From the NCBI GenBank assembly GCA_028865345.1, contig JAGWKL010000004.1:79422-143421 (forward strand): DNA of 64,000 nucleotides, given 5' to 3'. Below, in pieces: positions 16,668-32,782 of the stretch. Each line of letters opens with the position of its first letter. Position 1 is the first letter of the stretch. This DNA is from Candidatus Omnitrophota bacterium. GTDB lineage: Bacteria > Omnitrophota > Gorgyraeia > Zapsychrales > Fredricksoniimonadaceae. The position numbers and the translations under genes are program-made. Below the pieces are notes generated by a model. It saw only the letters and a program-made list of their open reading frames with translations, was not told where the DNA came from and did not search any database.

Positions 16668-17336
16668 TCAGCCTTTGATCATATAGCCGCGGCCTCTAAC
16701 GGTACCGATAAGGGCCGTTTTATGGCCTTCGTCAATTTTCCGCCGCAATTCATGGATATGGACGTCGATGGTATTGGTGGTGGTGCTGAAATGGGTGTCC
16801 CATACGCATTCCGATATGTCCGTTCTTGTAACCACCTGACCGGCATAACGCATCAGATACTCAAGAAGCTGAAATTCCTTTGCCGTCAAAGGGATCTCCT
16901 TGCCTGCTCTTGTCACTTTATGGCCGGGCAAATCCAGTATAAGGTCCGCCACCTGAAATTTGGTGGACACAAGGGTTTCTTTCCGCCGGAGCAACGCGCG
17001 GATCCTTGCCAGAAATTCTTTAAAGGCAAATGGCTTTGTCAGGTAATCCTCAGCCCCGGCATCCAGCCCTTCGACTTTGTCCTCTACAAAATCTTTGGCC
17101 GTAAGCATGAGGATGGGGGTCATGATCTTATCTTTCCGCAAATTCTTACAAACAGAGATGCCGTCCATTTTAGGCAGCATGATATCCAGGACGATCAGGT
17201 CATATTTTTCCGTCCCCGCCAGGAAATAACCCTCTTCTCCGTCATAGGCCACATCAACGGCGTACCCCGCTTCCTGGAGGCCCTGTTTGATAAAACCGGC
17301 TATATGTTTTTCGTCTTCGACGACTAAAATCCGCAT
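16668..17336 (-). CDS. OmpR-family response regulator (CusR/CzcR-like)
   Basis: Receiver domain with phosphoacceptor D in LIVLDIMLP, plus a winged-helix output domain (GTVRGRGYMI). Confidence 0.9.
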   Translation of the reverse strand: MRILVVEDEKHIAGFIKQGLQEAGYAVDVAYDGEEGYFLAGTEKYDLIVLDIMLPKMDGISVCKNLRKDKIMTPILMLTAKDFVEDKVEGLDAGAEDYLTKPFAFKEFLARIRALLRRKETLVSTKFQVADLILDLPGHKVTRAGKEIPLTAKEFQLLEYLMRYAGQVVTRTDISECVWDTHFSTTTNTIDVHIHELRRKIDEGHKTALIGTVRGRGYMIKG

Positions 17337-18022
17337 TAAAGTAAATTGAAACGATAGCCGATGCCCGGCTCATTGATGATGCGCCGGGGGGTTGAGGGGC
17401 TGTCTTCGATCTTCTGGCGCAGGTGGTTTAAATAGACCCGGACGGAATTGGCCTTCTCTTCGTTTTCCGTCGCCCAGACCTCCCTTAAGATCTGGCGCAC
17501 CGTCAGGATGCGGCCCGCGTTCTTGATGAGCGCGGACAACAGCCCGTATTCGATGGAAGTCAGCTTGAGTGCCTGGCCGCAAAGCCAGACGCGGCGGGTA
17601 TTGAATTCCACCCGCAATCCCGCGTTGTCAAAAACTTGGTCGACAATGCCGGAGGTGGTCTTGCGCCGCAGCACCGCCGCAAGCCTTGCGGTCAGCTCGG
17701 AGGCGGAAAACGGCTTGGTGACATAATCATCCGCCCCGCTTTCCAGGGCTTTGACCTTGATCTCTTCCTGCCCACGCACCGAGACGATGATGACGGCCAC
17801 GTCGCTGAATTCCCTGATGCGCCGCAGCACCTCCAGCCCCTCCATATCCGGCAGGCCCATATCCAATAAAACGGCCTGAGGTTTTTTATAAACAACCGCC
17901 CCCAGGCCCTCTTGGCCGTTTTGAGTATGGACCGCTTCATACCCGGCGTGCGTGAGGATAATGCCCAACATTTTTTGGATTTGAGGCTCATCATCAATGA
18001 CAAGTACTGTGCCTTTGGACAT
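17336..18022 (-). CDS. kdpE: KdpE response regulator (OmpR family)
   Basis: Receiver plus winged-helix domains. Lies immediately downstream of kdpD with a 1-nt gap. C-terminal GIGYRF motif. Confidence 0.85.
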   Translation of the reverse strand: MSKGTVLVIDDEPQIQKMLGIILTHAGYEAVHTQNGQEGLGAVVYKKPQAVLLDMGLPDMEGLEVLRRIREFSDVAVIIVSVRGQEEIKVKALESGADDYVTKPFSASELTARLAAVLRRKTTSGIVDQVFDNAGLRVEFNTRRVWLCGQALKLTSIEYGLLSALIKNAGRILTVRQILREVWATENEEKANSVRVYLNHLRQKIEDSPSTPRRIINEPGIGYRFNLL

Positions 18023-18023
18023 C

Positions 18024-20666
18024 CTATTCTTTTTCCGCCATGGGCAGGGTGATGGTCACCATAAAACCTTTCGGGGACAAATTCTCCGCTTCCACCTCGC
18101 CCTCATTCAATTGCACGAACCGGCGGGCGATGGACAACCCCAGTCCCAGGCCGCCTTTCCTGGTCTTGGCCCCCCGATAAAATTTATCGAAAATCTTGGC
18201 CAGGGTCTGTTTGGAAATGCCTTCCCCCTGGTCAATGACGCTGATCCTGATCTTTTGGTCGATCACACGGACATGGATGTCGATGTCCAGGCCCTCGGGG
18301 CCGTGCACCAGGGCATTATGGACGATATTTTTCAACGCCTGTGTGATCATATAGAAATCCGCATTCACATACACAGGACCCTGCGGACAATCTACATGGA
18401 TGCGCTTTTCATCCTTGGACGTCCCCACCTGCTTAAGGGCGTGGGCCACGATGTCCTTGACTTCGCACCAGGCAAAATTGGGACTTAGGTTGCCGACATC
18501 CAGCTTGGTCAGATCCAGCACCGCATCCACGCCGCTGGTCAGGCGAAGGCAGGCCAGCCGGCATTCATCCAAAAGCTCCATGGCATCCTTGGGCCACTGA
18601 TGAAACAAGATCAGGGCGTCCAGATAACCGGAAATGATCGTCAGCGGCGTCTTGAGCTCATGGGACAAATTATCAAGAAGCGCGCTTTGCAGATTTTGCG
18701 TGTCTTCCTTCATCTTGGCTTCACGGGAGATCTTCAGCAGCTGGTCCTTTTCCAGCATCACCGTCATAAGCGCCGTGAATGATTCCAATAATGTCCTCTG
18801 GGCCAAATCCAAAGGCCTTTCCTTTAAAAGCTTGATGACCACAATGGCCCTCACCTGGCCCGATGACATTAAAGGCAGGTACATCAAGGGCTGCTGGGGC
18901 AGCGTGTCCGAAAAACGGCCCGCGGCCTTTTTATTGGCCACCACCCACTGGACCAAACCTTTTTGGTTGGGTGTCATATCAATAGGGTCCCCCAACGGAT
19001 TGGCGAACAGCGGCTGCTCGCTCTCGTCGACCATAAAGACGCTGCTATGGCACTGCAGCAACAGGTTGATTTGGGCTGTCGCCAGGCGCATGGCCTGGGC
19101 GATATCGGTGCTGAGCGCCAGGGCCCTGGTCAACTCATACAGGGATTCGGAACGTTGGCGCTGCTTCTGCTCTATTTCCTTTTGGCGGCGCAGTTTCGAG
19201 GTGACAAATCCCATCATCAAGGCTGTTATGAAAAACATGCCGAGTACGCCGATGTCATAGGTGGTCCTCAGATGAAGCGCAAACTTAGGAGGAATGAACA
19301 AATAATCCCAGGCAAAGGCGCTTAAAGCGGCCAGCATAAAGGCCGCGCTGCGGCCCAGGAAAGAACCGCTCAAGACAACGGTCAGCAAATATAAAAGCCC
19401 CAGCACCTCGTAGCCCGTCCAGGGGGCCAGCAGCATGTTCACGATGGTCGCAATGACAAACATCAGGAAACTCAAGCCATATTCACGGGGTCTTGGCCTC
19501 ATCAAGAATTCATTGGGTTTGGAAGGAAAGTTCTTTTCCGCGGCCGACATGCGCACCATATGCACGTCTATCTGTCCGCTTAAAGCCACCAGGCGGTCCG
19601 CCACCGTCGGGATCCCCAAAAAACGCTGCCATCTGGTCTCCGACGATTTTCCGAAAATAATTTGGGTCACGTTTTCCTTATTGGCCACATCCACGATCAC
19701 CTGGGCCAGGTCATCCCCGACCCGGTGGATGATCTCCGCCCCCAGCTGCCGGGCCAGGGTCAAATTCTTCATCAGGCGTTCTTTATGCTCTTCGGTAAGC
19801 GGCGCGGAACCTTCCACGTGCAGGGCGATCCAGGAGGCATCGAGCATCCCTGCCCAGCGGCGGGTCATGCGGATCAATGATTCCGAAAAAGGCGTAATAC
19901 CTACAGCCACCAGAATGCGTTCCCCGCTTTTAGAAGGGCCTGAAAGGCCCTTGGCCAGCATCAGCGAGCGCAGGTTGCGGTTGACATGGGCCGTGGTCAG
20001 GCGGAGAGCCATTTCCCTTAAGGCCGTGAGGTTTTCCGTCTTAAAAAAGTTGACCGCGGCCGCCTGAGCCTGGTCAGGGACATACACCTTGCCTTCGGCC
20101 AGGCGCTGGTGCAAGGCCTGAGGTGAAAGGTCGACCAGCGTGATTTCGGAAGCTTCGTCCAGGATGGTGTCGGGAACGGTCTCACCGACGGCAATGCGGG
20201 TGACCGCCAGGATGTCCTCCCGGCGGCTGTCCACATGCTGCACGTTCAGGGTGGTGAACACATCGATGTCCGCGGCCAGGACCTCCAAAACGTCCTGATA
20301 ACGTTTGGGATGACGGCTGCCCGGGGCATTGGTATGGGCAAGCTCATCGACGAGAACCAACTGCGGATGGCGCTTAAGGATCTCATCGATGTCCATCTCT
20401 TCGATGGTAATGCCCCGATAATTGACTTTCTTTAAAGGGATTTGCTCCAGGCCCTGCAGGAGCGCCCGGGTCTCGGGCCGGCCATGGGTCATGACAACGC
20501 CTACCAGCACCCGGAAACCCTCCGCCTGGCGCTGGCGCGCCTCCTGGAGCATGGCGTAGGTCTTGCCGACGCCGGGGCACATGCCGAAAAAAATCTTGAG
20601 TTTGCCGTGGTGGTCTTCTTCGGCTTTAAATCTCGCTAACAGCGCGTCCGGATCAGGGCGTTCCAT
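18024..20666 (-). CDS. kdpD: KdpD osmosensitive K+ channel sensor histidine kinase
   Basis: N-terminal KdpD domain with Walker A (GMCPGVGKTYAM), USP-like domain, 4-TM block, GAF-like region, HisKA (LSHELKTPLT) and HATPase. Confidence 0.9.
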   Translation of the reverse strand: MERPDPDALLARFKAEEDHHGKLKIFFGMCPGVGKTYAMLQEARQRQAEGFRVLVGVVMTHGRPETRALLQGLEQIPLKKVNYRGITIEEMDIDEILKRHPQLVLVDELAHTNAPGSRHPKRYQDVLEVLAADIDVFTTLNVQHVDSRREDILAVTRIAVGETVPDTILDEASEITLVDLSPQALHQRLAEGKVYVPDQAQAAAVNFFKTENLTALREMALRLTTAHVNRNLRSLMLAKGLSGPSKSGERILVAVGITPFSESLIRMTRRWAGMLDASWIALHVEGSAPLTEEHKERLMKNLTLARQLGAEIIHRVGDDLAQVIVDVANKENVTQIIFGKSSETRWQRFLGIPTVADRLVALSGQIDVHMVRMSAAEKNFPSKPNEFLMRPRPREYGLSFLMFVIATIVNMLLAPWTGYEVLGLLYLLTVVLSGSFLGRSAAFMLAALSAFAWDYLFIPPKFALHLRTTYDIGVLGMFFITALMMGFVTSKLRRQKEIEQKQRQRSESLYELTRALALSTDIAQAMRLATAQINLLLQCHSSVFMVDESEQPLFANPLGDPIDMTPNQKGLVQWVVANKKAAGRFSDTLPQQPLMYLPLMSSGQVRAIVVIKLLKERPLDLAQRTLLESFTALMTVMLEKDQLLKISREAKMKEDTQNLQSALLDNLSHELKTPLTIISGYLDALILFHQWPKDAMELLDECRLACLRLTSGVDAVLDLTKLDVGNLSPNFAWCEVKDIVAHALKQVGTSKDEKRIHVDCPQGPVYVNADFYMITQALKNIVHNALVHGPEGLDIDIHVRVIDQKIRISVIDQGEGISKQTLAKIFDKFYRGAKTRKGGLGLGLSIARRFVQLNEGEVEAENLSPKGFMVTITLPMAEKE

Positions 20667-20708
20667 GCCTTCTATGATACTTCATTTGAGGGCTCGTGGA
20701 AAATTATT

Positions 20709-23700
20709 TTAACGGTTTCCAAACATCAAATGGAAGGCATCGTTGACGGTAAGGCTGGGGGTGAAACGGACGATGTGGAAATTAAACCCTTGAAACCCCT
20801 CAGACATCTGCACCGCCTCCCTTCTCCCGGAAAGACCGGCAGTGGAAAAACGATTGATGAATTGAGGCTGAAAATCAAGGTCAATACCCCCGCTGCGTTT
20901 GGCGGCGGAAGCGTTCATGGCGGCATCGACCACCCTTTGGGCCAGATGCCTCGCCCTGTCGGAAGCGGAAGCAAAAACCACCGTATTCCTCTCCGGCAAA
21001 TAAACCATGTTTTTCAAATTGTGGCGGGACAAGGAGACCTCCCCAATTACTGAATAAACGCGCGTTCTTTCATCCACCGATGCGTTTCTAATAGCATTTA
21101 AATTTCTTTCAAAACTCTCTTTATATCCATTACCGTTCCCATTACCATTGCCATGTCCATTATCGGCACCACTGCGTATTTGGGCCTGGATATAATCCAT
21201 GTATTCTTTTAAAAGAATGTTGGGGTCCTCAAAATTTTGGGCCATGACCCTGGGAATAATGATATCCGGAATAAATCTTAACCCGCCGGCATTGACCAAT
21301 TCCTCGGCCAATACTGTTTGCAATTGGACCTCCTCAGGGGACATGGTCATAAGGCGGGTCAAGCCCATCATTTGCTGGGCCGATTCATTGTCCAGGTCCA
21401 AGCCTTTGGCCCTGATGATATTGATCGTGGGTGAAAATCGTTTTCTCGCATGCTCCCTAAGATCGAGGTTTTCATACATTCTGGCAACCGTCGTCAGCCC
21501 TTCGTTTAAATCAGAAATCACCCAAGCCCGAGATGGCCTGGAGAGATCGTGCAAATCCCTTATGTTCGTCCAATGGGTGCCGAAGGTGATCCCTGAACCA
21601 TCGGCATGTTGGACAGGAGGCCCCACATAAGCATCCTGTGCGTAACCCAGGACAAGCCCTCCTTTAGGCGTCGTTTTTGCCGCCGCGTATAAATTGTAAA
21701 TGCCTAATTGGATACGGGGATCATCGGGAGGGATGTTGCCCTCAACGAAAAGAAAGAGTTTATGGTTGTCCTTGCCCGATTTGGTTTCTCTCAAGGCCTT
21801 AAAAAAAGTGTCCCCATCCTGCGTCCCCCACCCGATGATTTGGGAGTTCCTGACGGTTTCCCTGAGAGCCTCGATGTACTTAGGGTCATGGTTTTCCACC
21901 AAAAGCACAACGGGATCATCACCCTCATGGGATTCGGCTTCTTCAACGGCCCGCCTGATAATCTGTTCTTCATTGTTGGCTTGCGAGACATTTTCAACGA
22001 CATTTTTCTTAAATACAGGCCATTGGTGAGGCCCTGCCGTCAATCCGACGGCTTCGGCCATTTTTTCACGGAGCCTGAGCAGCACCTCTTTCATGTTTTT
22101 GTTGTCTATCAACCTCTTATTGGCCAGGGTGGGCCCCAAATAGTTGGCAAAGGTGATCGCCACGCTGGCCAGAAGACCGAATATTTCAAGGACATTGAAA
22201 CGGCCGAATGTCAAAAATGGCAGCCGCCCATAACCGAAATAGCTAAAGGCGATCTTTAATGCCAAAAACCCGTCTACAAATGTAAAAATATGCCGGCTGT
22301 ACCAACTGCGCTTACGCGAATTCTTGCTTGAAGCTGCGTACCCGTAACTGCCGAATCTCTTACTCTCCTTTTTGACTTCCAGCCATCGTTTCTTGCTCTC
22401 GGTGATGGTAGCGTTTATTTCATTTTCCTTATAGAGTCCGGGGACAATAAAATTGCCTGTCTCCATCAGGTCCCTTAGGTCAGCCTCCAATTTATTTTCA
22501 GGCTTCTTGACCAGGGACTCAAAGCCCAAAAGGGCGGTGGGATAATTGAAGGTCTCCTCCAGTTCGCCTTTCTGAAAATGTTCGTTGTTACGGAGATTAA
22601 GATTGACACGGCCCTGGAGCCAATCCAGAAATTTCTGGACGTAGATCATTTTTAAATTCATGCGCTCGCTGGTTTCCCAAGAGGCATGTCGTTGGCCTTC
22701 CGTGGCCCTGTTCATACGGTCAGACACCATTTTGGAAGTCCTGTTGGCCAGTCTCACAAAGTAAGAAAAACCTTTCTGATAGGCCTCGTTCTGGGCGCCT
22801 TTACGGCTTTTGTTATCGACAAGGTCCGGGGTATATTTCATACGGACAATGATGGCATCGGCAATAACGGCCATAAACACCTGGTCGTTCAGGAGTTTTT
22901 CTATCGGATAACGGGGATCGCTGTCCCATAACTGTAAAATTTCTTCCCATTTTTTCAAAAGTGCCGGCACACTGACCTCATTAGCAATAACCCCCTCTCC
23001 CTTGCCGTTATTATTAAGGAACTCATCCTCCAGGATGCGCATGAGTTTATCCAGGCTTGCAAACTTTCTGTTTTTCCAGTCCCAGAATTTCGGAGAAAGA
23101 AGGTAGTAAAGCCCCACGCAGATAACGAGAAGGCTTGCCCCGACACCTGTATTCCAGGCCCATTGCCACCAGTGCCCCTGGACGATCTGCTGGTCATTCT
23201 CATAGATGGATTTTATATAATCGTTACGCAGCTTCAGGACCGCTTCCACAACTTCTTTATCTGTACCGGAGTTTTTCATCTGAGTTAAATACTTCTCCAG
23301 CTCTTGCGGGTCGTTCAGAGACTCGATTTTTTGTGCCAATCGATCCAAAGCATCCGAAAACCGGACAGAATGGACCGGCATCCCTGCGGAATAAGAATCC
23401 TTTTGGGCCATCTGCGTATTGATCTGGATGGCGCGTACGGCCCACTTGGTGGCGATCAACTTGATCTGGGCGTCCCGGCTCGCGGCTCCTGCCGCGGGAG
23501 GGTTCTGCATGGACAGTTCTATAAAGGAATATGTATCCAAATACGCCTCAGAAAACGACAGGTTCTGCGTCCGTCCGCCCATTTTATAGAGCGCCCGTCG
23601 AAAAACCCCCATGGCCGCCGGTGTTTTAAGATTTTGAGCATCTTGTTTGACGGTATCTATATTCTGACGGGCCTCAATGGCCCTAAGCATGAGCTCATCA

Positions 23701-26700
23701 TTGGAATTGATGTAGTCTTGCATCACCAATAAACGGCCTTCAGCATCCCCCATCAATCGGTCCAGGACCAAATTTAAATCATCCGCATTTTTCAAAACAT
23801 ACGGATGGGGAAGGATGCGGGCCAGTTCGGATTTTGTCGCTGTTTTAAGATACTCTCCTTGCCGGGAGACCGTCATGGTTGATAAATACGCCAGCGTGTC
23901 TTGAGGGTCCCGGGGAAGCGCGCCGATAGCGGAAACACCCGCCCTTTCCTGCTCATTGACCTGGTTTTGATCGATCAAATTTTGCGCCTGCCGGCGGGCT
24001 TCTGCCAACAAATCGCCCCTCAAAAGGCCCATATGTTTACGCCAGCCGGGGGAATTCAAAAATAGACGCAATTGGTCCGGTAATACGCTGATACGTCCCA
24101 AAGCCTCCGTATTGGAATCAACGAACAAAGAGTACGTATTGACATTTTGATATTCTCCCGGCTGAAAATGTTCATTTATCCTCTCTAAAACAATCTTTCT
24201 GACCAGGACATCCATGAACAGATCTTTCATGGCCTGGGCCTGCTTAGGGTCGGCAAAGTAAAGATCCATTTCATTATAAAGGCGGGCCAACTCATCCGTA
24301 CGCCAATATCGGCCCATCAATAGGTTGTCTTGCCCCAACCCATCAGGGTCCTTGGCAATAAAGGCCAGTAAGATTTTCTGTGCCAAAGCCCGTTGATTGG
24401 GATAAACACCGTCGGCATCGAAACTGGAGGGATACAAAGCATCCAAAATTCCGGGGTTATCGGTAAAGATGTCCCCGATGGACTGATAAGCCCAATTGAC
24501 GGCTTGGCCATTGCCCTTTTGCTGCGCCGTTTGGATGAAGTTGACTAAAAAGCGCAGGCTGCGCCATGGGTTGCTCCCGTCTAAAAACAGAAAAATCCGC
24601 TCTCTGACGTCTGCGGGCGCCGTCAAGGCGGCTGCCCCCAGTTTTTCAACGTCTTTTGCTGTCCCCTGATAGCCGGACAAAAGGTCATCGATCCCGGGCT
24701 CCCTGTTAAAAGGATTGCTGTCATAAACATTCATCGTTGAATTGGGCCCGGGCAGGGTCGATCTGGCCTTCCAGGCATTAAAATCCCTATTGGGATTTGA
24801 AAGCTGCTGGGCGTGAAGGGGCATGACGCCGATGCTGACGGCCATGCTGAAAGCCAGAATTAATTTCTGTAAAAAACCCGCAAGCTGGGCCCTGTCAGCG
24901 GCCATGGCCTGGTTTGCGCTGTCTTGGATCAGGGATTGGTCCGGGCCCAGGACGCCCAATTTTTGCAAATCATCCTGGGCCTGGAGATATTGACCTTTAA
25001 GTTGTATTATCTTCACGGCCCACTTATTCATGGCTCCGCGCTCCGTGGCCCAATCCTGAGGCGCGTAAAGAGTGCCTGTAAAGCCGGCTTTCAACTCCCA
25101 CCATTTTAGGGCATTTTGATAAGCTTCCCGGGCTTGTTGGATTTGACTGCTTAAATCTCTAAGAGCGCCGATCTTGACGGCCACTTCCCCTCTTAAATTA
25201 TTTTCCATCAACTCCAATTCTGCCGTCTTCTTTTGCAATTCGAGGGCAAGGATCTTTTGATCTATTTTCTTCTTTCCATCATATAAGGGGATGCTCAACC
25301 CTTCTGCGCCGTTCTCTCCGGGATTCATTTCAGAAGCCCGCCATGTTTCGCCGCCGCCGAAGGCGGGTTCCGTAAAAGAACTGCTGATGGCGCTGCCGCT
25401 GTAAACCCCTGTGGCATTGGCCTGCCAGCCTTCGATCTTTTTCAATTTTAACTGCTGGCGGATCTTGGCTATTTCCGTCTGGGCCCGTTGGATTTGAGGA
25501 TTAGCCGTTAAAAGTTTTTCGATAAAAGCATTTTCCTGCTCTTGGCTTGGGGCGGGAAATTCCGCCTGCCATGGGATGTCCATGGCAAAGCCTGCATGAA
25601 GGTCTTGCCGGCCGGTTAAGGTGTTGAGTTGTATGGTCAGTTCGTCATTGCCCTGAACAGCTTCTGATCTTGCTTCCTTAGCTTCCGCAATATTATTGTC
25701 AAAGGCCATGAGCTGCTCTTGTGTACCCACGCCGGCTTGCATGCTCTGGACAATGGCTTTTCTCCCCATTTCCAAATCTTTGATATATTGATCGTAAAGC
25801 GCCGCGATTTGCTGTTGAGTCCCCAGATCAATACCGATGTCCTTGGCATGTTCAGTCTGTTCAAGCACAGCAGCTTGATACTCGCGCAGCACGATTTCCG
25901 TCTGTATTTTGGCATATTCTATCTGTTTGGCCTTTTGGTGGGTGACCAATTCCGCGATCTTTAGAAAATAGGGAAAGACCAGCTTGGCTGCCGCGCCGTA
26001 AGCATTGCCGGAAGCCAGATCAATGGCAACATCCGGTATATTGGCATCGACCCCGCCGCCGATATATGTTTTGCCGCCGGATGAATAAACATTAAAATCC
26101 AGACCGATGTATTTGCTGTTGGGATATTTCTCGGCCAATTGGTTTTGGAGGTATGAAATCCTTTGGGTAACAGCCGTCAGTTTAAAGTCCCTGACCTTTT
26201 GCCCTATGGCAGTAAGGTTCACCGAGGGCCCCTGTACCGGAAATGACGTCAGGGGCGGATTAATGTTGATAACGGCCCGAGGGTTTAAAACCGGCCGGGA
26301 AAGCTTATCCGCATGAATTTTGGGCGGAGGCGGCGGAGCTGCCCCTGAAAAGACCGGCGTAGAATTCTCCTGCGTCCATACCTTTGCCGCTATCTGCTGA
26401 TTTGTTTTATCCAGCAAGCTGACATTGACTCCCATGCCTATGCGTAAAACATGCCGGGGGTCAAGGACCTTGATTTCAACCGACTTTTTGTTCAATTGGA
26501 TGTCCGGACTGAAAGCATCAACAACATTGGTCACCCGTCCTACAAGCCGATAACCCCCTATTTGAGTTGTGACCAGCACATAATCGCCCCGATGAACAGG
26601 CCCATCCAAAAGGACCGCGTTCGAGGGATCATTAAAATCCCCCAGAAAAACGGTGCCGGGGCTGTACTCCAAGAGTTTCTCGCCGCTTTTAAACGTTCCT

Positions 26701-29700
26701 GATTGATGTTCCCATGATGAGACAATAACGCCGTCCCTCGGAGCTTTTATGACTAAATTATTCAGAATCGTCCTGAGCCTTGCAACTTCAGATTTCCATT
26801 TAATGTCTTCGGCCTGAAGCTTATCGATCTGTACCGGAGCGATCGTCCCGCCGGAAGCAGGCGCTTCGTTTCTAAGCCGGTCTTCAACCGCATGAACTTG
26901 ATCGACTGCTTCCTGATATTGAGCAAGATATGGTTTAGGGTCCACCCGGGCCACGATTTGGCCGGCCTCGACCTTGTCCCCTTCACGGACCAAAAAATTT
27001 ACCGGCCCGTCGGCCGTGGCATCGATCGGATAGGTTTCAATGTTTCTGACCAGCTCACGCGTGCTTCCGGAGGCAACAATGGTATGAAGCAGCCTGGAGG
27101 ACCCTCCATCCGCAGAATAGACTTTAAGAGACAACTGCACTGTCTGGCCCTGTCTTATCGGCGATGAAGGGGTGACAACCAAGGTCAAATGTGCCGTCCG
27201 CGGATCCACCGTGGGCAGCCAATTAATGCCTGTGATGCTCTTGACCGGTTTACCGTCGATGGTCAGGTCAAGATCATTGTTATTGGCGCTGATGGGAAGG
27301 TCCACTTCAAAGCGGACCCTGTCTTCGTCAAAATAACTGGCCAACGCGGCCCCCTGCTCGACAGGAGTTCCGCTGTCGACTTGAAAATCCCTGATCACAA
27401 GTTTATGGGGAGCTTTTACCTTCCCCAACTCACGCTCGGCTAAAGCCTTGGTCAATTCCTGCTGCAGGCTTTGGACATTTTCCCGGGCCTTCTGCAGTTC
27501 ATTGACCGGAGCGGCCTGGGACTGCTCCAGAGAAGCCTCCATTTCTTCGGCAGCATGCAATTGCGCCCGAAGGGTTGTAATACGGCTTTCCAACTGCAGA
27601 TTCCTTATGATGAGTATTGTTTCTCCTTCTTTATATGTCGTCTTGGAAGCATCCAGGATCTCCGCAAAACCGCTCAGTTTGGCCGTTAAATTGTCCTCAA
27701 CAGAAGAGGCCTGCACTTTTTTCTGCAACACATAAAACTTTTTACCATAATGCCAAGGGATTTGATGGGTTTTTACGCGGGATGGGACGACATGACTCAT
27801 TGGTGCTGCTGCGGGAACGGGCTTGGACGCCGGCGGGGACGCCGGAATTTCTTCATGCGCCTGCTGCGTTTGATAGGGTTTCTCAATCTCAACCTGCGCG
27901 GGTTTCAATGGCACGTTGACCGGTTCGATCCGTTCCTGTGTTTGAATATTGGCTTGTGTAGCTGCAGGGGCAACGGGCGTTGGATGTAAATTTAAATTCG
28001 TATTCTTCTCAGCCGGCAGCGGAGACACCTCTGCCACAGGCGTTGATCCGGTATCGGTTCGAATTTGACCGTTCATATCATCAAGAAGGCGGTGAATATC
28101 TTTTAAATTCCGTTCCAAATCATAGAGACTTTGAGTATGGGCAGCTTGAATCTGAACATCATGGTTGTCAAGGGCGCCCCTGGCTGGTCTGACGGTCCAG
28201 GTCTTGACAAAATCCTGCGCTGCTTGTTCGAGATCACCCAGGACACGGACAACATCATCCCTCTGTCCCTCCGGAAGGCTTCTGACAAAACCCGGGTCTT
28301 TCAACAGGCCGTCCAGGGCGTCGGCCTCTGCCCTGAATCGCGGGACAACGGGATGGGCCAGCGCTCCAAAAATATGGGAGCCTTCCGTATCATCGTCGAA
28401 TGTTGATTGCAGATCCTGGATCGTCCGGCTGAGTCTCTGAAAATTATTGCCGATGTTTTTATGGTCTACGTTGGATAAATCCTGCATGTAGCTCCTGACC
28501 TTGGGGCCGGCGTTCTCAGGGCCTGGGATATTAAAACTTGTGCTGGGCTGGATAACATTGATATTATGCGATGGGATTTGGCTTTCAACAGACGGCTGTA
28601 GCTGTGCCACAATTCCACGGGCTCCCCAAAGCTGCCCCCTATAACCGCTGTCCAGCAGGATTTGCCCTAAGGTATCATGCTGTTGGACTGCCACATGCAG
28701 GGTGCCATTAGAATTGTGGGTAATTACCGCGGCTTGGGCAACCCCACCTGCCCCCAACAATGCCAGGGCGACCGTAAGGACAAAACTCCTTATCGATGAA
28801 CGGCTGACCGTCATGCTGGGATCCATGCCGATGGGCGAAAGCGCCACATGGGCCATGGCATAGTCGGAACTCTGGGCCAAATCAGGCGCGATCACTTCGG
28901 GATTCATGACCCGTACGGTCATGGCCCAATTTTTGAAACCGGAAAAATTACAGCCGCCGGAAAAATATTTTCGGGGAACAATTTTCTGGGAAACAGGGTC
29001 CTCGTCTTCGCGGATATAGTTGTACGCGCCTTTCTTGAACAAACGCAGGTATTCCCTATAGATCTTTTCCTTGGCCTGCAAAGGCACGTCATCGACACCG
29101 GCGGTTTTTCTTTTATTGATATAAATGTCCGACAAAACATTTCTCCTTAAAGCGCGTTTATACCAGTCCGCCAGGATCAGTGAATAGAACATCTGGCGCA
29201 GCGGCGCGAAATTCTTGCCTGTATTGACCTCTTTTTCCAATTCCGGCAGTATGAGCCTTTTGGTGATCATGGAGGTAAAGCTATGGGTCGGGCGGGCGTT
29301 GATGCCGGCATGAGACCGGTTTTTTTTCAGGGCCAAATAATCCTCTTCCATCATGACCTTAAGGTGCGTTTGACCGACCACGGCACTGTTGCCCATGTCG
29401 TAGACAATGGCCTTGTCTGGAACTATCCAGACCTTATTGAAGGTGTTTATGGGAAGATCCGTGGTGCCGTATATTTCAGCGGCTTTTTTGTAAACTTCAG
29501 CCCAGAATTTTCTGCCAAGACCGGTCTCGGGATAGGTGAGCGAGGACGTCAATTGTTTAAGAAGCTTGTCCTGTTCCAGAAGGATGTTGCCAGCGTCCGT
29601 AACGGACAAATCCGCAGGGACAATCCGTCCTTTTTCGTAAGGCGATAAATTGACCCAAAGGTCTCCTTCCGGGATCGTCAGAAAGGTCAAAAAATACTTG

Positions 29701-29975
29701 ATAAGAAGCGAAGTCTCTTTGCGGCTGATCGTGCCCTTATCCTGGGCATCCACCATAAAATCGAATTCAAAAGGATTTTCAGGATACACGCGCATGCCGC
29801 GTAAAACAGGAGAGGAATAAGGAGAAGAAAGGGTAAGAATGCGGGTGTAGGGATCAGGTAAAAACGGTGTGGGCTGGGCCTGGACATAGCCGGCCGAGCT
29901 GTTGAAGACCAATAGAAAAATTAAAAGGCCGGTCAGCGACTGAAAAGGCCAGGATTTTTTCTTAAACATTGCCAC
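20709..29975 (-). CDS. giant 3088-aa mosaic envelope protein. Order N to C: signal peptide; unknown domain; internal signal-peptide-like TM; LysM-like motif; Pro/Ala-rich linker; two MFP(HlyD/AcrA)-like modules; PPPPP linker; TolC/OMF-like two-repeat module; second internal signal-like segment; about 1300-aa C-terminal region with 3 TM helices and a (GN)4 repeat
   Basis: Uninterrupted 9267-nt ORF. N-terminal signal peptide. Internal M..VLTVALALLGAGGVAQAA and ILAFSMAVSIGVMPLHAQQ segments that look like fossil signal peptides. HDTLGQIL...NINVIQPSTSFNIP resembles LysM. PVNFLVREGDKVEAGQIVARVD and LVIKAPRDGVIVS...YRLVGRVTNV match MFP lipoyl/beta-barrel motifs. LLTANPQIQRAQTEIAKIRQQLKL...LSIPLYDGKKK and LDFNVYSSGG...TGRQD match OMF repeats. 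TM helices lie near residues 2290 and 2490-2540. Confidence 0.7.
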   Translation of the reverse strand: MAMFKKKSWPFQSLTGLLIFLLVFNSSAGYVQAQPTPFLPDPYTRILTLSSPYSSPVLRGMRVYPENPFEFDFMVDAQDKGTISRKETSLLIKYFLTFLTIPEGDLWVNLSPYEKGRIVPADLSVTDAGNILLEQDKLLKQLTSSLTYPETGLGRKFWAEVYKKAAEIYGTTDLPINTFNKVWIVPDKAIVYDMGNSAVVGQTHLKVMMEEDYLALKKNRSHAGINARPTHSFTSMITKRLILPELEKEVNTGKNFAPLRQMFYSLILADWYKRALRRNVLSDIYINKRKTAGVDDVPLQAKEKIYREYLRLFKKGAYNYIREDEDPVSQKIVPRKYFSGGCNFSGFKNWAMTVRVMNPEVIAPDLAQSSDYAMAHVALSPIGMDPSMTVSRSSIRSFVLTVALALLGAGGVAQAAVITHNSNGTLHVAVQQHDTLGQILLDSGYRGQLWGARGIVAQLQPSVESQIPSHNINVIQPSTSFNIPGPENAGPKVRSYMQDLSNVDHKNIGNNFQRLSRTIQDLQSTFDDDTEGSHIFGALAHPVVPRFRAEADALDGLLKDPGFVRSLPEGQRDDVVRVLGDLEQAAQDFVKTWTVRPARGALDNHDVQIQAAHTQSLYDLERNLKDIHRLLDDMNGQIRTDTGSTPVAEVSPLPAEKNTNLNLHPTPVAPAATQANIQTQERIEPVNVPLKPAQVEIEKPYQTQQAHEEIPASPPASKPVPAAAPMSHVVPSRVKTHQIPWHYGKKFYVLQKKVQASSVEDNLTAKLSGFAEILDASKTTYKEGETILIIRNLQLESRITTLRAQLHAAEEMEASLEQSQAAPVNELQKARENVQSLQQELTKALAERELGKVKAPHKLVIRDFQVDSGTPVEQGAALASYFDEDRVRFEVDLPISANNNDLDLTIDGKPVKSITGINWLPTVDPRTAHLTLVVTPSSPIRQGQTVQLSLKVYSADGGSSRLLHTIVASGSTRELVRNIETYPIDATADGPVNFLVREGDKVEAGQIVARVDPKPYLAQYQEAVDQVHAVEDRLRNEAPASGGTIAPVQIDKLQAEDIKWKSEVARLRTILNNLVIKAPRDGVIVSSWEHQSGTFKSGEKLLEYSPGTVFLGDFNDPSNAVLLDGPVHRGDYVLVTTQIGGYRLVGRVTNVVDAFSPDIQLNKKSVEIKVLDPRHVLRIGMGVNVSLLDKTNQQIAAKVWTQENSTPVFSGAAPPPPPKIHADKLSRPVLNPRAVININPPLTSFPVQGPSVNLTAIGQKVRDFKLTAVTQRISYLQNQLAEKYPNSKYIGLDFNVYSSGGKTYIGGGVDANIPDVAIDLASGNAYGAAAKLVFPYFLKIAELVTHQKAKQIEYAKIQTEIVLREYQAAVLEQTEHAKDIGIDLGTQQQIAALYDQYIKDLEMGRKAIVQSMQAGVGTQEQLMAFDNNIAEAKEARSEAVQGNDELTIQLNTLTGRQDLHAGFAMDIPWQAEFPAPSQEQENAFIEKLLTANPQIQRAQTEIAKIRQQLKLKKIEGWQANATGVYSGSAISSSFTEPAFGGGETWRASEMNPGENGAEGLSIPLYDGKKKIDQKILALELQKKTAELELMENNLRGEVAVKIGALRDLSSQIQQAREAYQNALKWWELKAGFTGTLYAPQDWATERGAMNKWAVKIIQLKGQYLQAQDDLQKLGVLGPDQSLIQDSANQAMAADRAQLAGFLQKLILAFSMAVSIGVMPLHAQQLSNPNRDFNAWKARSTLPGPNSTMNVYDSNPFNREPGIDDLLSGYQGTAKDVEKLGAAALTAPADVRERIFLFLDGSNPWRSLRFLVNFIQTAQQKGNGQAVNWAYQSIGDIFTDNPGILDALYPSSFDADGVYPNQRALAQKILLAFIAKDPDGLGQDNLLMGRYWRTDELARLYNEMDLYFADPKQAQAMKDLFMDVLVRKIVLERINEHFQPGEYQNVNTYSLFVDSNTEALGRISVLPDQLRLFLNSPGWRKHMGLLRGDLLAEARRQAQNLIDQNQVNEQERAGVSAIGALPRDPQDTLAYLSTMTVSRQGEYLKTATKSELARILPHPYVLKNADDLNLVLDRLMGDAEGRLLVMQDYINSNDELMLRAIEARQNIDTVKQDAQNLKTPAAMGVFRRALYKMGGRTQNLSFSEAYLDTYSFIELSMQNPPAAGAASRDAQIKLIATKWAVRAIQINTQMAQKDSYSAGMPVHSVRFSDALDRLAQKIESLNDPQELEKYLTQMKNSGTDKEVVEAVLKLRNDYIKSIYENDQQIVQGHWWQWAWNTGVGASLLVICVGLYYLLSPKFWDWKNRKFASLDKLMRILEDEFLNNNGKGEGVIANEVSVPALLKKWEEILQLWDSDPRYPIEKLLNDQVFMAVIADAIIVRMKYTPDLVDNKSRKGAQNEAYQKGFSYFVRLANRTSKMVSDRMNRATEGQRHASWETSERMNLKMIYVQKFLDWLQGRVNLNLRNNEHFQKGELEETFNYPTALLGFESLVKKPENKLEADLRDLMETGNFIVPGLYKENEINATITESKKRWLEVKKESKRFGSYGYAASSKNSRKRSWYSRHIFTFVDGFLALKIAFSYFGYGRLPFLTFGRFNVLEIFGLLASVAITFANYLGPTLANKRLIDNKNMKEVLLRLREKMAEAVGLTAGPHQWPVFKKNVVENVSQANNEEQIIRRAVEEAESHEGDDPVVLLVENHDPKYIEALRETVRNSQIIGWGTQDGDTFFKALRETKSGKDNHKLFLFVEGNIPPDDPRIQLGIYNLYAAAKTTPKGGLVLGYAQDAYVGPPVQHADGSGITFGTHWTNIRDLHDLSRPSRAWVISDLNEGLTTVARMYENLDLREHARKRFSPTINIIRAKGLDLDNESAQQMMGLTRLMTMSPEEVQLQTVLAEELVNAGGLRFIPDIIIPRVMAQNFEDPNILLKEYMDYIQAQIRSGADNGHGNGNGNGNGYKESFERNLNAIRNASVDERTRVYSVIGEVSLSRHNLKNMVYLPERNTVVFASASDRARHLAQRVVDAAMNASAAKRSGGIDLDFQPQFINRFSTAGLSGRREAVQMSEGFQGFNFHIVRFTPSLTVNDAFHLMFGNR
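21121..21170. repeat. hexanucleotide (GGNAAT)n-type microsatellite encoding GNGNGNGNG inside the giant ORF
   Basis: ccattaccgttcccattaccattgccatgtccatt on the + strand, giving GHGNGNGNGNGY in the protein. Confidence 0.5.
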
Positions 29976-30092
29976 ACTCGGAGATTTATCGGTTTCGCTC
30001 CAAGTATAGCCGCTCTATATTATGTATATGTTAAGACAAAGTTAATTTTAAATACTTCCAAAACCATATCAATTGCAATGGGTTAGATGATA

Positions 30093-30680
30093 TCAAGGTC
30101 TCTTCATTGACATATGATCGAGAGCGATGTTGACCTGCAGAACGTTGACGACCGGCTCTCCGAGAAGGTCTAAGAACCGGCCTTGAGTGTAGCGATTGAC
30201 TATTTGCCGGACTTGGGTTTTGGACATTCCCCGTACACGGGCGACACGCGCCAGTTGATACCGGGCCGCAGCCAGACTGATGTCAGGGTCTAACCCGCTG
30301 CCGGAAGAGGTCACTAAATCCACCGGAATAGGGGCCTTGTTGCCCGGATCAGCGGCTTTTAAAGCTGCGATCCGGCCCTTCACCTCGTCCAGTAAAGCAG
30401 GATTGGTAGGGCCAAAATTTGATCCTGTGGAAGAAGATGCATTGTAAGCCGGGATAGTGGCCGATATCCGGCCCCAGAAATATTTCGGGTCGCTGAAATC
30501 CTGCCCTATCAAGGTGGAGCCTAATATTTTACCATTGCTCGAATAGATCAAACTGCCTTCGGCCTGTTTGTGGAACAATGTCTGGGCAATGCCGGTGACG
30601 ACCAGCGGATATATGATGCCGGTCAATACCGAAAACAAGATGAACGAAACGATGGTTGGTCTAAGCTGAGAAAAAAACAT
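30093..30680 (-). CDS. kdpC: potassium-transporting ATPase subunit C
   Basis: N-terminal TM and conserved KdpC motifs (SGSGLDPDIS, QVNIALD). Confidence 0.9.
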   Translation of the reverse strand: MFFSQLRPTIVSFILFSVLTGIIYPLVVTGIAQTLFHKQAEGSLIYSSNGKILGSTLIGQDFSDPKYFWGRISATIPAYNASSSTGSNFGPTNPALLDEVKGRIAALKAADPGNKAPIPVDLVTSSGSGLDPDISLAAARYQLARVARVRGMSKTQVRQIVNRYTQGRFLDLLGEPVVNVLQVNIALDHMSMKRP

Positions 30681-30697
30681 TTTTTATTGCCTCCTCG

Positions 30698-32779
30698 TTA
30701 TACCCAATGCCATGCGGCCAAAATCATGTCGATCAATTTAATCCCCACAAACGGGGCGATGAGGCCTCCTGCACCATAAATCAACAGATTGTCCCGCAAT
30801 AAACGGCTGGCAGCCACGGCCCGGTACGGTACGCCGAACAACGATAAAGGAATGAGCACAATGATGATGAGCGCATTAAAGATAACCGCAGAAAGGATAG
30901 CACTTTGCGGGGTCGTTAAATGCATGATATTCAATGCTCCAAGTTGAGGGTACGTTCCCACGAATGCCGCCGGGATGATCGCAAAATATTTGGAAACGTC
31001 ATTGGCGATGCTAAAAGTGGTCAGAGACCCGCGTGTAATAAGAAGCTGTTTGCCGATCTTTACCACTTCGATCAATTTAGTGGGATTGGAATCCAAGTCC
31101 ACCATGTTGCCCGCTTCCTTGGCAGCCTGGGTGCCGGTATTCATAGCAACCGCCACATCCGCCTGGGCCAAAGCAGGCGCGTCATTGGTCCCATCGCCGG
31201 TCATGGCGACCAGCCGGCCGCCGGTTTGCATGTCACGGATCAACTTCAATTTAGTTTCAGGGGTCGCCTGGGCAAGGAAATCATCCATGCCCGCCTCCGC
31301 CGCAATGGCCGCGGCTGTCAACGGATTGTCACCCGTGATCATGACGGTCTTGATGCCCATACGCCGCAATTCGGCGAATCGTTCACTGATCCCGCCTTTG
31401 ACAATATCTTTTAACTCGATGACCCCCAGCACATGTTGATTCTCTACCACCGCCAGCGGTGTGCCTCCCTTTTGGGAAATGGCCTCTACCGTTGATTTTA
31501 GATCATCGGGGAATACCCCGCCGGCTTTTTTCACATGGCTTTCAATGGCATCGACCGAACCTTTCCGTATTTGGCGATTAGACCCCAAATCCACCCCGCT
31601 CATCCTAGTCTGGGCGCTGAAGGGAATGAAATGCGCACCTATTTCCTGGGTCTGCCTTTCCCTGATACCGTACCGTTTGGCCAACACCACGATGCTGCGG
31701 CCTTCCGGGGTTTCGTCAGACAATGAAGACAATTGGGCCGCATCTGCCAGGGCCTCAACTTTTACTCCTTTTGCCGGAACAAAGGCCACGGCCTGCCTGT
31801 TGCCCAAGGTGATTGTCCCTGTCTTATCGAGCAGCAAGACATCCACATCGCCGGCGGCTTCCACCGCTCGACCGGATGTGGCGATGACATTAGCCTGAAT
31901 CATGCGGTCCATGCCGGCTATACCGATGGCCGGCAACAAACCGCCGATCGTGGTGGGGATCAGACAGACCAAAAGCGCGACCAAGGCCGTGACCGTGATC
32001 ACGGTCCCCTTGCCGGCCGCGGCCACGCTAAAAATGGAAAACGGCAAAAGGGTCACTGTCACCAAAAGAAAAATGATCGTAAAAACCACCAGCAGGATGC
32101 TCAATGCGATTTCATTAGGAGTTTTCTGGCGGCGGGCCCCCTCCACCATGGCGATCATGTGGTCCAAAAATGTTTCGCCGGGATTGGCGGTGATTTTAAT
32201 GACCAACCAATCTGAAAGCACGCGTGTGCCTCCGGTGACCGCAGAGCGGTCGCCGCCGCTTTCGCGGATAACAGGCGCGCTTTCCCCGGTGATGGCGCTT
32301 TCATCGACGGACGCAACGCCTTCGATGACCTCGCCGTCCATGGGGATATAATCCCCTTGCTCGACAAGCACAACATCGTCCTTATGCAAAGCCGTGACTG
32401 AAACGCTGGTGAAGCCCGCCCCATGGACAGGCTTGGAGAGCTTTTTGGCAGGCGTGTCCTTACGGGCACGGCGCAAGCTTTCGGCCTGGGCCTTGCCCCG
32501 GCCTTCGGCCATGCTCTCCGCGAAATTGGCAAACACGATCGTAAACCACAGCCATAAAGTGACCGCAAGGATAAAGCCGGCCCCGGCTTCGCCATGTCCT
32601 ATCAAGGCCTGGATCCATAAACCTGTCGTCAACACGCTGCCGACGAAAACCACAAACATGACAGGATTCTTGATCTGGTGCCGCGGGTCCAGTTTCTTAA
32701 ATGCCTCAATGACCGCCGGCCACAAAATCGTAAGTTCAAACAATGATGTGACCTTGCTGTGTGTCTTTTTCATAATCAT
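30698..32779 (-). CDS. kdpB: potassium-transporting P-type ATPase subunit B
   Basis: DKTGTIT phosphorylation motif, TGDN and [10 protein letters not shown] motifs. Confidence 0.95.
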
Positions 32780-32782
32780 CCC

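Follow-up and report, generated by a model that had tools for sequence, protein, structure and literature searches.

How the parts of tripartite pumps assemble into a 3:6:3 ratio is still under study. In synthase-dependent exopolysaccharide systems, for example that for alginate (Alg8/Alg44/AlgE), an MFP-like co-polymerase works among separate proteins, a processive glycosyltransferase is present, and a beta-barrel porin together with a TPR partner makes up the outer-membrane part. The Omnitrophota, from which the protein described here comes, are a phylum of uncultured nanobacteria for which a predatory or parasitic life is suspected. For tripartite pumps a stoichiometry of 3:6:3 is given (PMC4754349), and open reading frames (ORFs) of Omnitrophota have been termed giant above 20 kb (PMC10066038).

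The window analysed here, a stretch of 64,000 nucleotides from a Candidatus Omnitrophota genome, holds a gene whose product, called the giant protein below, resembles each of these in part. It carries homologues of the MFP adaptor and of the TolC-like OMF, and so of two tripartite-pump components out of three; the 6:3 adaptor to OMF ratio of assembled pumps equals the 2:1 ratio found in its single chain, and like them it has a membrane-embedded module and a cytoplasmic domain. It differs from them in that all parts lie on one polypeptide with no ABC, RND or MFS transporter in or beside it, that the membrane module has only three helices, that the cytoplasmic fold is that of a nucleotidyltransferase and not of an ATPase, and that the chain bears extra N- and C-terminal caps. 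The predicted path from a cytoplasmic nucleotide-sugar-handling domain through the inner membrane and an MFP-like periplasmic part to an outer-membrane exit is reminiscent of alginate-type systems, from which the giant protein departs by its single chain, its TolC-like exit and the fact that no processive glycosyltransferase was found. Like the giant proteins of its own phylum it is a long, multi-domain and membrane-associated chain with a signal peptide, transmembrane (TM) helices and a cytoplasmic module of the sugar-metabolism type, but its ORF of 9.3 kb lies well below their threshold. Neither MFP/TolC content nor the pair of caps is mentioned in the Omnitrophota giant-protein papers (Seymour 2023; West-Roberts 2023; 2026 preprint). 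No description of an MFP-TolC fusion of this kind was found in them or in a large tripartite-pump review, and the author of an earlier note on this DNA knew of no described family with this order of modules. The same genome encodes a second covalent fusion of envelope-pump components:

4802-9313, minus strand: AcrB::OMF fusion of 1503 aa, with ACR_tran and two OEP domains

This fusion keeps a canonical RND transporter and a normal OMF-AcrB-MFP operon, whereas the giant protein has neither; moreover, it carries no caps and its adaptor is encoded by a separate gene.

Gene structure and assembly support

The ORF and the modules assigned to it, in order from the N-terminus of the protein, are as follows.

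20709..29975, minus strand: whole giant ORF, 3088 codons plus stop, GTG start
29877..29939, minus strand: SP1, aa 13-33, signal-like segment with KKK n-region and 12-residue h-region, ending VQA/Q
28938..29876, minus strand: N-cap, aa 34-346, conserved alpha/beta domain
28716..28787, minus strand: TM2, aa 397-420, conserved, with PIGxSRK-type positive residues before and AQA/A after, predicted N-in/C-out
28518..28706, minus strand: aa 424-486, small domain of beta-alpha-alpha-beta order, its likeness to LysM confined to that order
27696..28517, minus strand: variable helical region and Pro/Ala/Gln-rich linker, aa 487-760, poorly conserved
27117..27629, minus strand: MFP/adaptor unit 1, aa ~783-953, with lipoyl half, alpha-hairpin and beta-barrel
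26415..27029, minus strand: MFP/adaptor unit 2, aa ~983-1187, assigned by profile matches
26226..26363, minus strand: Pro-rich linker, aa 1205-1250, containing PPPPP
24906..26213, minus strand: OMF/TolC-like unit, aa ~1255-1690, with a Pfam OEP match at aa 1483-1627
24798..24869, minus strand: subclade-specific signal-like segment, aa 1703-1726, ending MPLHA/QQ
23151..24788, minus strand: domain X, aa 1730-2275, conserved, predicted periplasmic
23067..23129, minus strand: TM4, aa 2283-2303, N-out/C-in by its K+R flanks
22281..23066, minus strand: predicted all-helical cytoplasmic domain, aa 2304-2565
22125..22268, minus strand: TM6-TM7 hairpin, aa 2570-2617 (helices ~2570-2590 and ~2597-2617)
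20994..21926, minus strand: alpha/beta domain of sugar-1-phosphate nucleotidyltransferase fold, aa ~2684-2994, predicted cytoplasmic
20712..20903, minus strand: C-cap, aa 3025-3088, GGIDL...GFxGFNFxIVRF, superfamily-wide, low AlphaFold confidence

The giant ORF is real. It covers 9.27 kb with zero internal stops, and the protein is already in NCBI under the automatic name "TolC family protein", annotated with 3086 aa from an ATG at 29969. The earlier note had read one uninterrupted frame of 9.3 kb and 3088 aa and had proposed that its contiguity be confirmed; the frame is intact and independent assemblies agree on it. A protein of the identical 3086 aa is encoded in four NCBI MAGs (contigs of 150-212 kb), a sister MAG has the same kdpFABC-giant-kdpDE layout at 99.86% nucleotide identity, and the protein P0002 is present on 15 contigs. 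Furthermore, ~38 co-linear homologues of ~3,000 aa each, with 22-47% identity to the giant protein, were collected from ENA, JGI, Logan and NCBI, a family size that rests on one homology search, and the junctions between modules are conserved in their alignment. That an assembly or sequencing error fused ordinary separate genes therefore has a vanishingly small probability, and this explanation was rejected. Its sole candidate is the long-read contig L005, the only one of 79 loci from an N-cap alignment search of GTDB genomes that belongs to the MFP-OMF family, where the orthologue is broken into four ORFs; this split itself looks like a frameshift error of that assembly, and otherwise nothing favours an artefact.

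Genomic neighbourhood

The gene sits between kdpC and kdpD within the kdp operon, and its neighbours are kdp genes both in the source genome and in L084. A functional tie to K+ transport was considered and rejected, since the sister MAG, 99.9% identical, is alone in keeping the kdpC/kdpD position; homologues of 34-47% identity adjoin sucCD, Mrp/ParA and nuo genes (L001-L004) and not kdp. The location in the kdp operon is lineage-specific. An adjoining inner-membrane transporter gene, a trait of classical MFPs, was found neither in the kdp setting nor beside the sucCD, Mrp/ParA and nuo neighbours, and an ABC, RND or MFS partner gene is absent from all four annotated gene contexts, which fits self-sufficiency of the giant protein. 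Between kdpC and the giant gene lies the best sigma-70-like site of the region:

30045..30072, minus strand: sigma-70-like match TTGATA-16-TAAAAT, a consensus match only

It is possibly the gene's own promoter, with the proviso that site counts in this region are not above shuffled expectation.

Adaptor and TolC-like units

The earlier note proposed two tandem MFP-like units and a TolC/OMF-like unit, and suggested profile searches for both; the searches recovered both kinds of domain. Compared by hhalign with the window's own 357-aa MFP, the two adaptor units reach probabilities of 94.6 and 89.3 over the lipoyl/hairpin/barrel region (positions 95-278, prob 95, and 73-278, prob 89, of that protein), and they match each other with a probability of 95.6. 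In PDB profile searches they retrieved MacA (8e-11) and also MexA and EmrA, and TIGR01730 matches the giant protein at 4e-11, below its trusted cut-off. The PPPPP linker, placed by the note at nt 26320..26345, was located at nt 26322-26336 (aa 1214-1218).

For the OMF unit, Pfam OEP (PF02321) scores 24.1 bits on the giant protein against a gathering cut-off of 22. Among 16 members of the family it recognises 14, the best at an E of 1.2e-12, and a PDB profile search retrieved OprJ at 1e-3. Single proteins give less: the giant protein's own OEP evidence, 24.1 bits in a single repeat, is thin, one OEP stretch being recognised in it (two in the homologue P0009), and the two halves of the unit align in register at an E of 0.054, which is not significant. 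The hhalign score against the window's own 415-aa OMF is low (E 9e-4, prob 22%), a consequence of using a lone sequence as template. An ordinary OMF is a stand-alone protein of ~420-500 aa with two tandem OEP repeats and its own N-terminal signal or lipobox, whereas this unit is embedded mid-chain behind the Pro-rich linker, with no hydrophobic segment ahead of it.

Judged by alignment, two adaptors, OMF, TM and cytoplasmic modules truly share one chain, and this claim of the earlier note holds family-wide, the conserved order being TM2, small domain, two MFP units, OMF, domain X, TM4, helical cytoplasmic domain, TM hairpin and nucleotidyltransferase-fold domain. In each chain there are thus one OMF, two adaptors and one membrane module.

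Signal-like segments and topology

SP1 corresponds to the N-terminal signal peptide that had been noted; it looks in every respect like a cleavable Sec signal, and the whole superfamily defined by the caps (see below) conserves it. Two further signal-like segments had been placed near residues 395 and 1790. The first is TM2, whereas the second actually lies at aa 1703-1726 and occurs in only 7-8 of 20 aligned members, which form one subclade. The three TM helices reported earlier were found again as TM4 and the hairpin. To assign topology, the K+R content of the two flanks of each segment was compared; the number of members richer on the N flank, set against the number richer on the C flank, was 16:1 for TM2, 0:18 for TM4 (18 of 19 members richer on the C flank), 19:0 for TM6 and 0:14 for TM7. 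This flank bias predicts that aa 420-2283 are periplasmic and aa 2304-3088 cytoplasmic. SP1 and TM2, however, both appear N-in/C-out, and no simple topology fits both.

In an inverted topology the N-terminal signal would export the N-cap and TM2 would act as stop-transfer; the MFP/OMF-like region would then be a scaffold in the cytoplasm, with the nucleotidyltransferase-like domain on the outside, an arrangement for which the superfamily-wide Sec-like SP1 speaks, as does the alternating topology obtained in the giant protein's subclade once the third segment is counted. We consider this highly improbable, since TM2, TM4, TM6 and TM7 would then break the positive-inside rule in almost all members, OMF/MFP domains that are known only outside the cytoplasm would come to lie inside it, and homologous domains would have the opposite topology in members lacking the third segment.

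Signal-peptidase-like -3/-1 motifs follow all three segments, which favours processing of the chain. Signal peptidase I or another protease might cut after the internal segments to release an N-cap piece, a LysM-like-MFP-MFP-OMF piece located in the periplasm and outer membrane and, in the giant protein's subclade, a separate domain-X-TM-cytoplasmic piece, from which an ordinary multi-subunit assembly would then form. In most members a conserved basic motif precedes TM2 and an AxA-type motif follows it (AQA/A, AHA/A, ASA/A, AEA/Y), the subclade segment ends in P-L-x-A/Q-Q, the same pattern as in the N-terminal VQA/Q, and TM2 would be oriented correctly for cleavage if the N-cap stays cytoplasmic. 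Even so, we regard such a polyprotein as unlikely, though worth keeping in view. An N-in insertion would be required of the third segment after the presumably periplasmic OMF region, and with this membrane parity a simple Sec/SPase scheme is difficult to construct; the segment is missing in more than half of the aligned members while the domain order is unchanged, and selection has retained a single ORF across 22-47% identity. Internal translation starts at the signal-like segments were rejected, as no Shine-Dalgarno-like motif was found upstream of M384, M388 or M1691, so that separate translation is not indicated either.

The LysM-like peptidoglycan-binding motif that had been suggested finds no sequence support. 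PF01476 gave no match at E<=1 in the whole giant protein, and six aligned copies of the small domain gave none to LysM at E<=10 against Pfam and PDB profiles, so that LysM by sequence was rejected. AlphaFold models the domain with a pLDDT of ~90 as strand 425-430, helices 436-442 and 455-464 and strand 480-484, and LysM is not among the Foldseek matches of the 500-aa model; the modelled beta-alpha-alpha-beta order alone fits LysM.

Domains of the C-terminal part

The C-terminal ~1300 aa had seemed unrecognisable; they resolve into helical periplasmic, helical cytoplasmic, TM hairpin and nucleotidyltransferase-fold domains. Domain X has zero Pfam or PDB sequence matches. The ~700-aa unknown domain with a repeat described earlier is likewise not a single domain, although the repeat GNGNGNGNG exists (aa 2942-2950) and forms a loop at nt 21126-21152 in the nucleotidyltransferase-fold domain. 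In the structure prediction aa ~2684-2994 adopt a sugar-1-phosphate nucleotidyltransferase (GT-A-like NTP-transferase) fold. This domain has no match among PDB sequences and none in Pfam, where only CofC appeared, at 0.006, in one of 16 members. It differs from FKP/GDP-fucose pyrophosphorylase and other sugar-1-phosphate nucleotidylyltransferases in having no detectable sequence similarity to them, in not conserving the glycine-rich loop and in being tethered to the membrane behind the TM hairpin. As the family consensus GSGNAY, kept for instance in the homologue P0006, is replaced by QDGDTF in the giant protein's subclade, the domain may be non-catalytic there.

Caps shared across the phylum

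The N-terminal ~360 aa, which had matched nothing recognisable, indeed have no counterpart in Pfam, NCBIfam or PDB, but they belong to a phylum-wide family. The N-cap shares ~45-60% identity with thousands of Omnitrophota proteins, in which the motifs DLWVNLSPYE, KVWIVPDKAVVYE and PRKYFSGG, present also in the giant protein, mark a ~330-aa domain after a signal-like segment. All 120 of the 120 N-cap matches listed span aa ~30-345. A profile retrieved 8,349 cluster representatives, the domain always being N-terminal among the 150 matches listed. GTDB genomes contain at least 593 such stretches, of which the best 80 are almost all from Omnitrophota MAGs. The AlphaFold model (pLDDT 72.5) found nothing below E 0.1 by Foldseek against PDB, and a ClyA/NheA-type likeness was rejected as noise (prob <=0.12). 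At the other end, a GGIDL...GF.PVI..I.P module lies 60-110 aa from the terminus (aa 3029-3086 in the giant protein), without a match in Pfam or NCBIfam; it is shared by most of the 120 N-cap matches listed and by 43 of 53 complete N-cap ORFs from GTDB loci. By these sequence criteria, the first 345 and last 65 aa represent the caps that mark a large superfamily of Omnitrophota proteins, uncatalogued and defined here, and the giant protein is one cargo variant of this phylum-wide capped family.

A possible trans-envelope duct

The reading that we put forward, with a probability we judge to be evenly balanced, is that the gene product serves as one protomer of a self-contained trans-envelope assembly in Omnitrophota. 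The AcrB::OMF fusion of the same genome speaks for it as well. With one OMF, two adaptors and one membrane module per chain, a homotrimer, which the OMF unit would form in TolC fashion, would give 3 OMF : 6 adaptors : 3 membrane modules, as in machines of the AcrAB-TolC type, and three such chains would amount to a duct whose parts are joined covalently in advance and which runs from the inner membrane (nine helices per trimer) to the outer one. OMF homotrimers form a 12-strand beta-barrel and an alpha-barrel; here trimerisation and the beta-barrel of the OMF unit are assumed from family membership. A ligand of the nucleotide-activated sugar type, bound or made by the nucleotidyltransferase-like domain, would feed or gate the duct. 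Counting against such a duct are the giant protein's own thin OEP match, the lack of sequence matches for the nucleotidyltransferase domain, the signal-peptidase-like motifs, the low number of TM helices per chain and the lack of a recognisable energy-coupling transporter, no ABC, RND or MFS domain being found by Pfam, NCBIfam or PDB profiles in the giant protein and 16-20 homologues, as well as the conflicting orientations of SP1 and TM2 and the subclade's third signal-like segment inside the presumed periplasmic part.

The missing energising module and the lack of adjoining pump genes would suit a structural tether that links the inner membrane to the wall and the outer membrane, or that holds a surface coat in place. 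Spacers and an outer-membrane anchor would be provided by the adaptor and TolC folds, and no substrate would pass. The caps, which suggest that very different cargos are localised or anchored in a common way, and the long low-complexity linkers point the same way, and giant Omnitrophota proteins have been proposed as coat or adhesins (PMC10066038). We nevertheless find a tether rather improbable, because the exact ratio of one OMF to two MFP units with retained OMF-docking adaptor alpha-hairpin regions would be a needless coincidence for a strut, and the conserved cytoplasmic nucleotide-binding-type fold suggests ligand chemistry. The duct reading can be carried further, to a complete homotrimeric 3:6:3 one-gene machine with no ABC/RND/MFS partner in ultra-small and possibly predatory bacteria, whose cytoplasmic nucleotide-sugar-type domain is coupled to the exit duct and whose caps represent an undescribed phylum-wide targeting or anchoring system for more than 8,000 cargo proteins, including glycolytic enzymes and kinases; in this full form it is possible but doubtful.

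If the duct reading is true, a natural, hard-wired combination of OMF, two adaptors and membrane module would be a ready object for structures of adaptor-OMF docking, and a duct would be possible without a classical energised transporter; it would also offer a handle on Omnitrophota envelope biology. Thousands of large proteins whose enzyme domains are otherwise of cytoplasmic type bear the caps, and their superfamily may outweigh the giant protein itself; to learn where the caps send their cargo would account for much of what is unusual in the proteome of the phylum.

Integrity of the reading frame

The giant gene (20709..29975, minus strand) is one uninterrupted ORF of 3088 codons counted from a GTG, while the NCBI protein (3086 aa) begins at the ATG at 29969, two codons downstream. 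Four NCBI MAGs each encode a protein of 3086 aa belonging to one 90% cluster, on contigs of 150-212 kb and always under the automatic name "TolC family protein [Candidatus Omnitrophota bacterium]"; one of the four, the sister MAG GCA_028866185.1, has the gene at the same location with 99.86% nucleotide identity. Among the database matches listed, the nearest distinct homologue (P0002) aligns over its full length at 47% identity and is present on 15 metagenome-assembly contigs (ENA and JGI); about 38 of the 120 best matches measure 2,700-3,600 aa and run co-linear with most of the query (22-47% identity). Since independent assemblies carry the same gene and so many homologues share its layout, the single ORF described in an earlier note stands, and an artefact has next to no probability. 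That note had also placed a PPPPP linker correctly and rightly recorded a GN repeat.

Adaptor and outer-membrane modules

The two tandem MFP-like units and the TolC/OMF-like unit proposed earlier are both borne out. HlyD_D23 and HlyD_3 match the query weakly in Pfam and TIGR01730 matches at 4e-11, while a 20-member family profile retrieves MacA (8e-11), MexA, EmrA and further adaptors among solved structures, in two separate regions. Aligned to this profile, the canonical 357-aa MFP of the same window (9310-10383) matches unit 1 (aa ~783-953, probability 94.6) and unit 2 (aa ~983-1187, 89.3), each covering its lipoyl, alpha-hairpin and beta-barrel part; the two units are also homologous to each other (95.6). 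OEP passes narrowly in the query (aa 1483-1627, 24.1 bits vs the Pfam gathering score of 22) and matches 14/16 family members (best E 1.2e-12), with two stretches in the homologue P0009, and OprJ is among the PDB profile-search matches of the family. The halves of the OMF unit can be aligned in register, their glycine-rich stretches coinciding (E 0.054, not significant). Across the family, the evidence for an OMF is solid.

Small domain, domain X and the C-terminal third

A LysM-like motif, also claimed earlier, is undetectable at the sequence level, with no Pfam or PDB sequence match at E<=10 for six aligned copies; the beta-alpha-alpha-beta order predicted by AlphaFold for aa 416-500 (pLDDT ~90) is compatible with LysM identity but no proof of it. 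In P0040, a cap-bearing protein of 5,119 aa, aa 2570-2665 resemble query aa 394-487 at 57% identity, comprising a hydrophobic segment and the small beta-alpha-alpha-beta domain, a cassette that in the query comes after the N-cap; its recurrence deep inside P0040 suggests module shuffling among cap-bearing proteins.

Domain X (aa 1730-2275) is conserved across the family alignment and has no Pfam or PDB sequence match. In an AlphaFold model of aa 2250-3088 with 16 homologues as input (pLDDT 74, pTM 0.75), TM4 leads into an all-helical domain, which a TM hairpin separates from an alpha/beta domain; the terminal ~65 residues are of low confidence. Because the alpha/beta domain finds no sequence-level match to known families in profile and PDB sequence searches, and the loop GSGNAY, conserved in the family, reads QDGDTF in the query, the modelled nucleotidyltransferase fold is taken as established for fold and not for catalysis.

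Membrane topology

The family alignment retains five hydrophobic segments: the signal-like one at the N-terminus, the first internal one and the three late TM helices, all correctly recognised before. K+R were counted in their 15-residue flanks.

Charge bias of the hydrophobic segments (aligned members with more K+R in each flank)
SP1, aa 13-33: N flank 15, C flank 0
TM2, aa 397-420: N flank 16, C flank 1
TM4, aa 2283-2303: N flank 0, C flank 18
TM6, first of the pair at aa 2570-2617: N flank 19, C flank 0
TM7, second of the pair: N flank 0, C flank 14

From TM2 on, this bias yields a single coherent order: cytoplasm, TM2, periplasm, TM4, cytoplasm, TM6/short loop/TM7, cytoplasm. The predicted periplasmic stretch (aa 420-2283) comprises the small domain, linkers, two adaptors, OMF and domain X, and the helical domain after TM4 as well as the nucleotidyltransferase-fold domain and C-cap after TM7 are predicted to be cytoplasmic. 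The adaptor and OMF units are thus placed on the side of the membrane that, to our knowledge, always carries such domains; an inverted topology is very improbable. For both SP1 and TM2 the flanks suggest N-in/C-out, and no hydrophobic segment separates them. The N-cap must then be cytoplasmic, with SP1 serving no export, unless the simple model is wrong. Many cap paralogues agree with a cytoplasmic N-cap: behind it come glycolytic enzymes, kinases or receiver domains, with no further TM.

A second internal signal-like segment, previously put near residue 1790, exists at aa 1703-1726 (24798-24869, minus strand; ...MPLHA|QQ), where the OMF unit gives way to domain X. It ends much as the N-terminal signal does, with a similar cleavage-site-like tail, and SP1, TM2 and this segment all retain small residues at positions -3 and -1, with Q or A next. 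Among the aligned members this third segment is confined to the query and its nearest relatives (subclade P0001, 2, 5, 6, 7, 9, 11). It does not fit the simple topology, as it falls inside a stretch that in the others is unbroken and lies on one side of the membrane. A polyprotein cut by signal peptidase is rather unlikely.

Genomic context

The giant gene splits an otherwise standard kdpFABC-kdpDE locus between kdpC and kdpD (17336-34528, minus strand). This layout is repeated in the sister MAG (L084) and not in more distant homologues, and since those at 34-47% identity lie near other genes (sucCD, Mrp/ParA, nuo), the kdp position is specific to this lineage and probably carries no functional significance. 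The spacer between kdpC and the giant gene contains TTGATA-16-TAAAAT (30072-30045), the top sigma-70-like match within the 18-kb region; overall site counts did not exceed the shuffled expectation. No ABC, RND or MFS transporter adjoins the giant gene or its homologues in any context examined.

Genes after kdpE in the window
16668-17336, minus: second OmpR-type response regulator, immediately after kdpE
15239-16666, minus: HAMP histidine kinase
14712-15146: unannotated 144-aa ORF
13418-14665, minus: OMF, RND operon
10380-13421, minus: AcrB, RND operon
9310-10383, minus: MFP, RND operon
4802-9313, minus: AcrB::OMF, final gene of the RND operon

The RND operon is an ordinary one; its AcrB::OMF (1503 aa) joins a complete AcrB-type RND transporter (ACR_tran, aa 4-1015) to an OMF with two OEP repeats and is a second fusion of envelope components in this genome.

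At the homologue locus L004 (1-29030), many housekeeping neighbours (sucD, nuo subunits) are called in short pieces and the 3009-aa homologue is intact; at L005 the reverse is seen, the homologue lying in four ORFs. Long-read frameshift errors are the probable cause. At three loci in two lineages, the MFP-OMF homologue is preceded, at a distance of a few kb, by another gene of great length (1,933-2,613 aa), in which Glug and Peptidase_M26_N match faintly.

Very long upstream genes
L001, 1495-8037
L002, 2236-8037
L004, 1-2526

Proposed working and known systems

TolC-family proteins are trimers. Each chain of the giant protein holds one OMF, two adaptors and one membrane module, and as tripartite pumps assemble 3:6:3 (PMC4754349), a homotrimer would match this stoichiometry exactly. 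The best explanation, in which we place about half our credence, is a covalently pre-assembled envelope-spanning duct. The data show module order, module homology and, through charge bias, the membrane side; we infer trimerisation, an open duct, the role of domain X, and substrate and energy. TM2 and TM4/6/7 would anchor the duct to the inner membrane, domain X would lie below the adaptor ring at the place of a transporter's periplasmic part, and the cytoplasmic nucleotidyltransferase-fold domain may provide or sense a nucleotide-activated ligand. An envelope tether or coat anchor without transport is unlikely.

Composed of parts of tripartite pumps, the giant protein may resemble them in working, but lacking an energised transporter it is neither a tripartite pump nor a T1SS; nor is it a stand-alone OMF or MFP. 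It shares phylum, membrane association and sugar-metabolism-type cytoplasmic content with the published Omnitrophota giant ORFs, which exceed 20 kb (PMC10066038), whereas its gene is too short to count among them. Its sequences are already public and auto-annotated, and no description of its architecture was found in the Omnitrophota giant-protein papers or a large review of tripartite pumps.

The cap superfamily

Terminal modules of the giant protein (minus strand)
28938-29939: N-cap with SP1, first ~345 aa
20712-20903: C-cap, last ~65 aa

The region aa ~30-345 is common to 120/120 listed matches at 40-63% identity, irrespective of what follows. The middles of cap-bearing proteins are unrelated to one another and consist mostly of enzyme domains of cytoplasmic type; in the listed matches they include phosphoglucomutase, triose-phosphate isomerase, NAD synthase, UbiB-type and Ser/Thr kinases, receiver domains, AAA_5 and HEAT repeats, among others. 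In nearly all full-length matches listed, a C-cap module with the consensus GGIDLNP...(30-40 aa)...GF.PVI..I.P..LP.LLG (GGIDLDFQPQFI...GFQGFNFHIVRF in the query) sits 60-95 aa from the C-terminus.

From 1.84 billion proteins the N-cap profile retrieves 8,349 cluster representatives (6,769 at E<=1e-30), starting within ~50 residues of the N-terminus in 150/150 listed matches. GTDB, at one genome per species, has 593 copies or more; the 80 best come almost exclusively from Omnitrophota MAGs, and a single genome often has several. Of these loci, 43/53 complete N-cap ORFs (403-3,535 aa) carry the C-terminal module, and cap-bearing Omnitrophota proteins range from ~400 to >5,000 aa. Neither cap has a match in Pfam, NCBIfam or solved structures (PDB), and no mention of them was found in the Omnitrophota giant-protein literature. 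Within the 64-kb window the giant gene is the sole cap carrier, and the cap superfamily is a more open-ended lead than the architecture of the giant protein.
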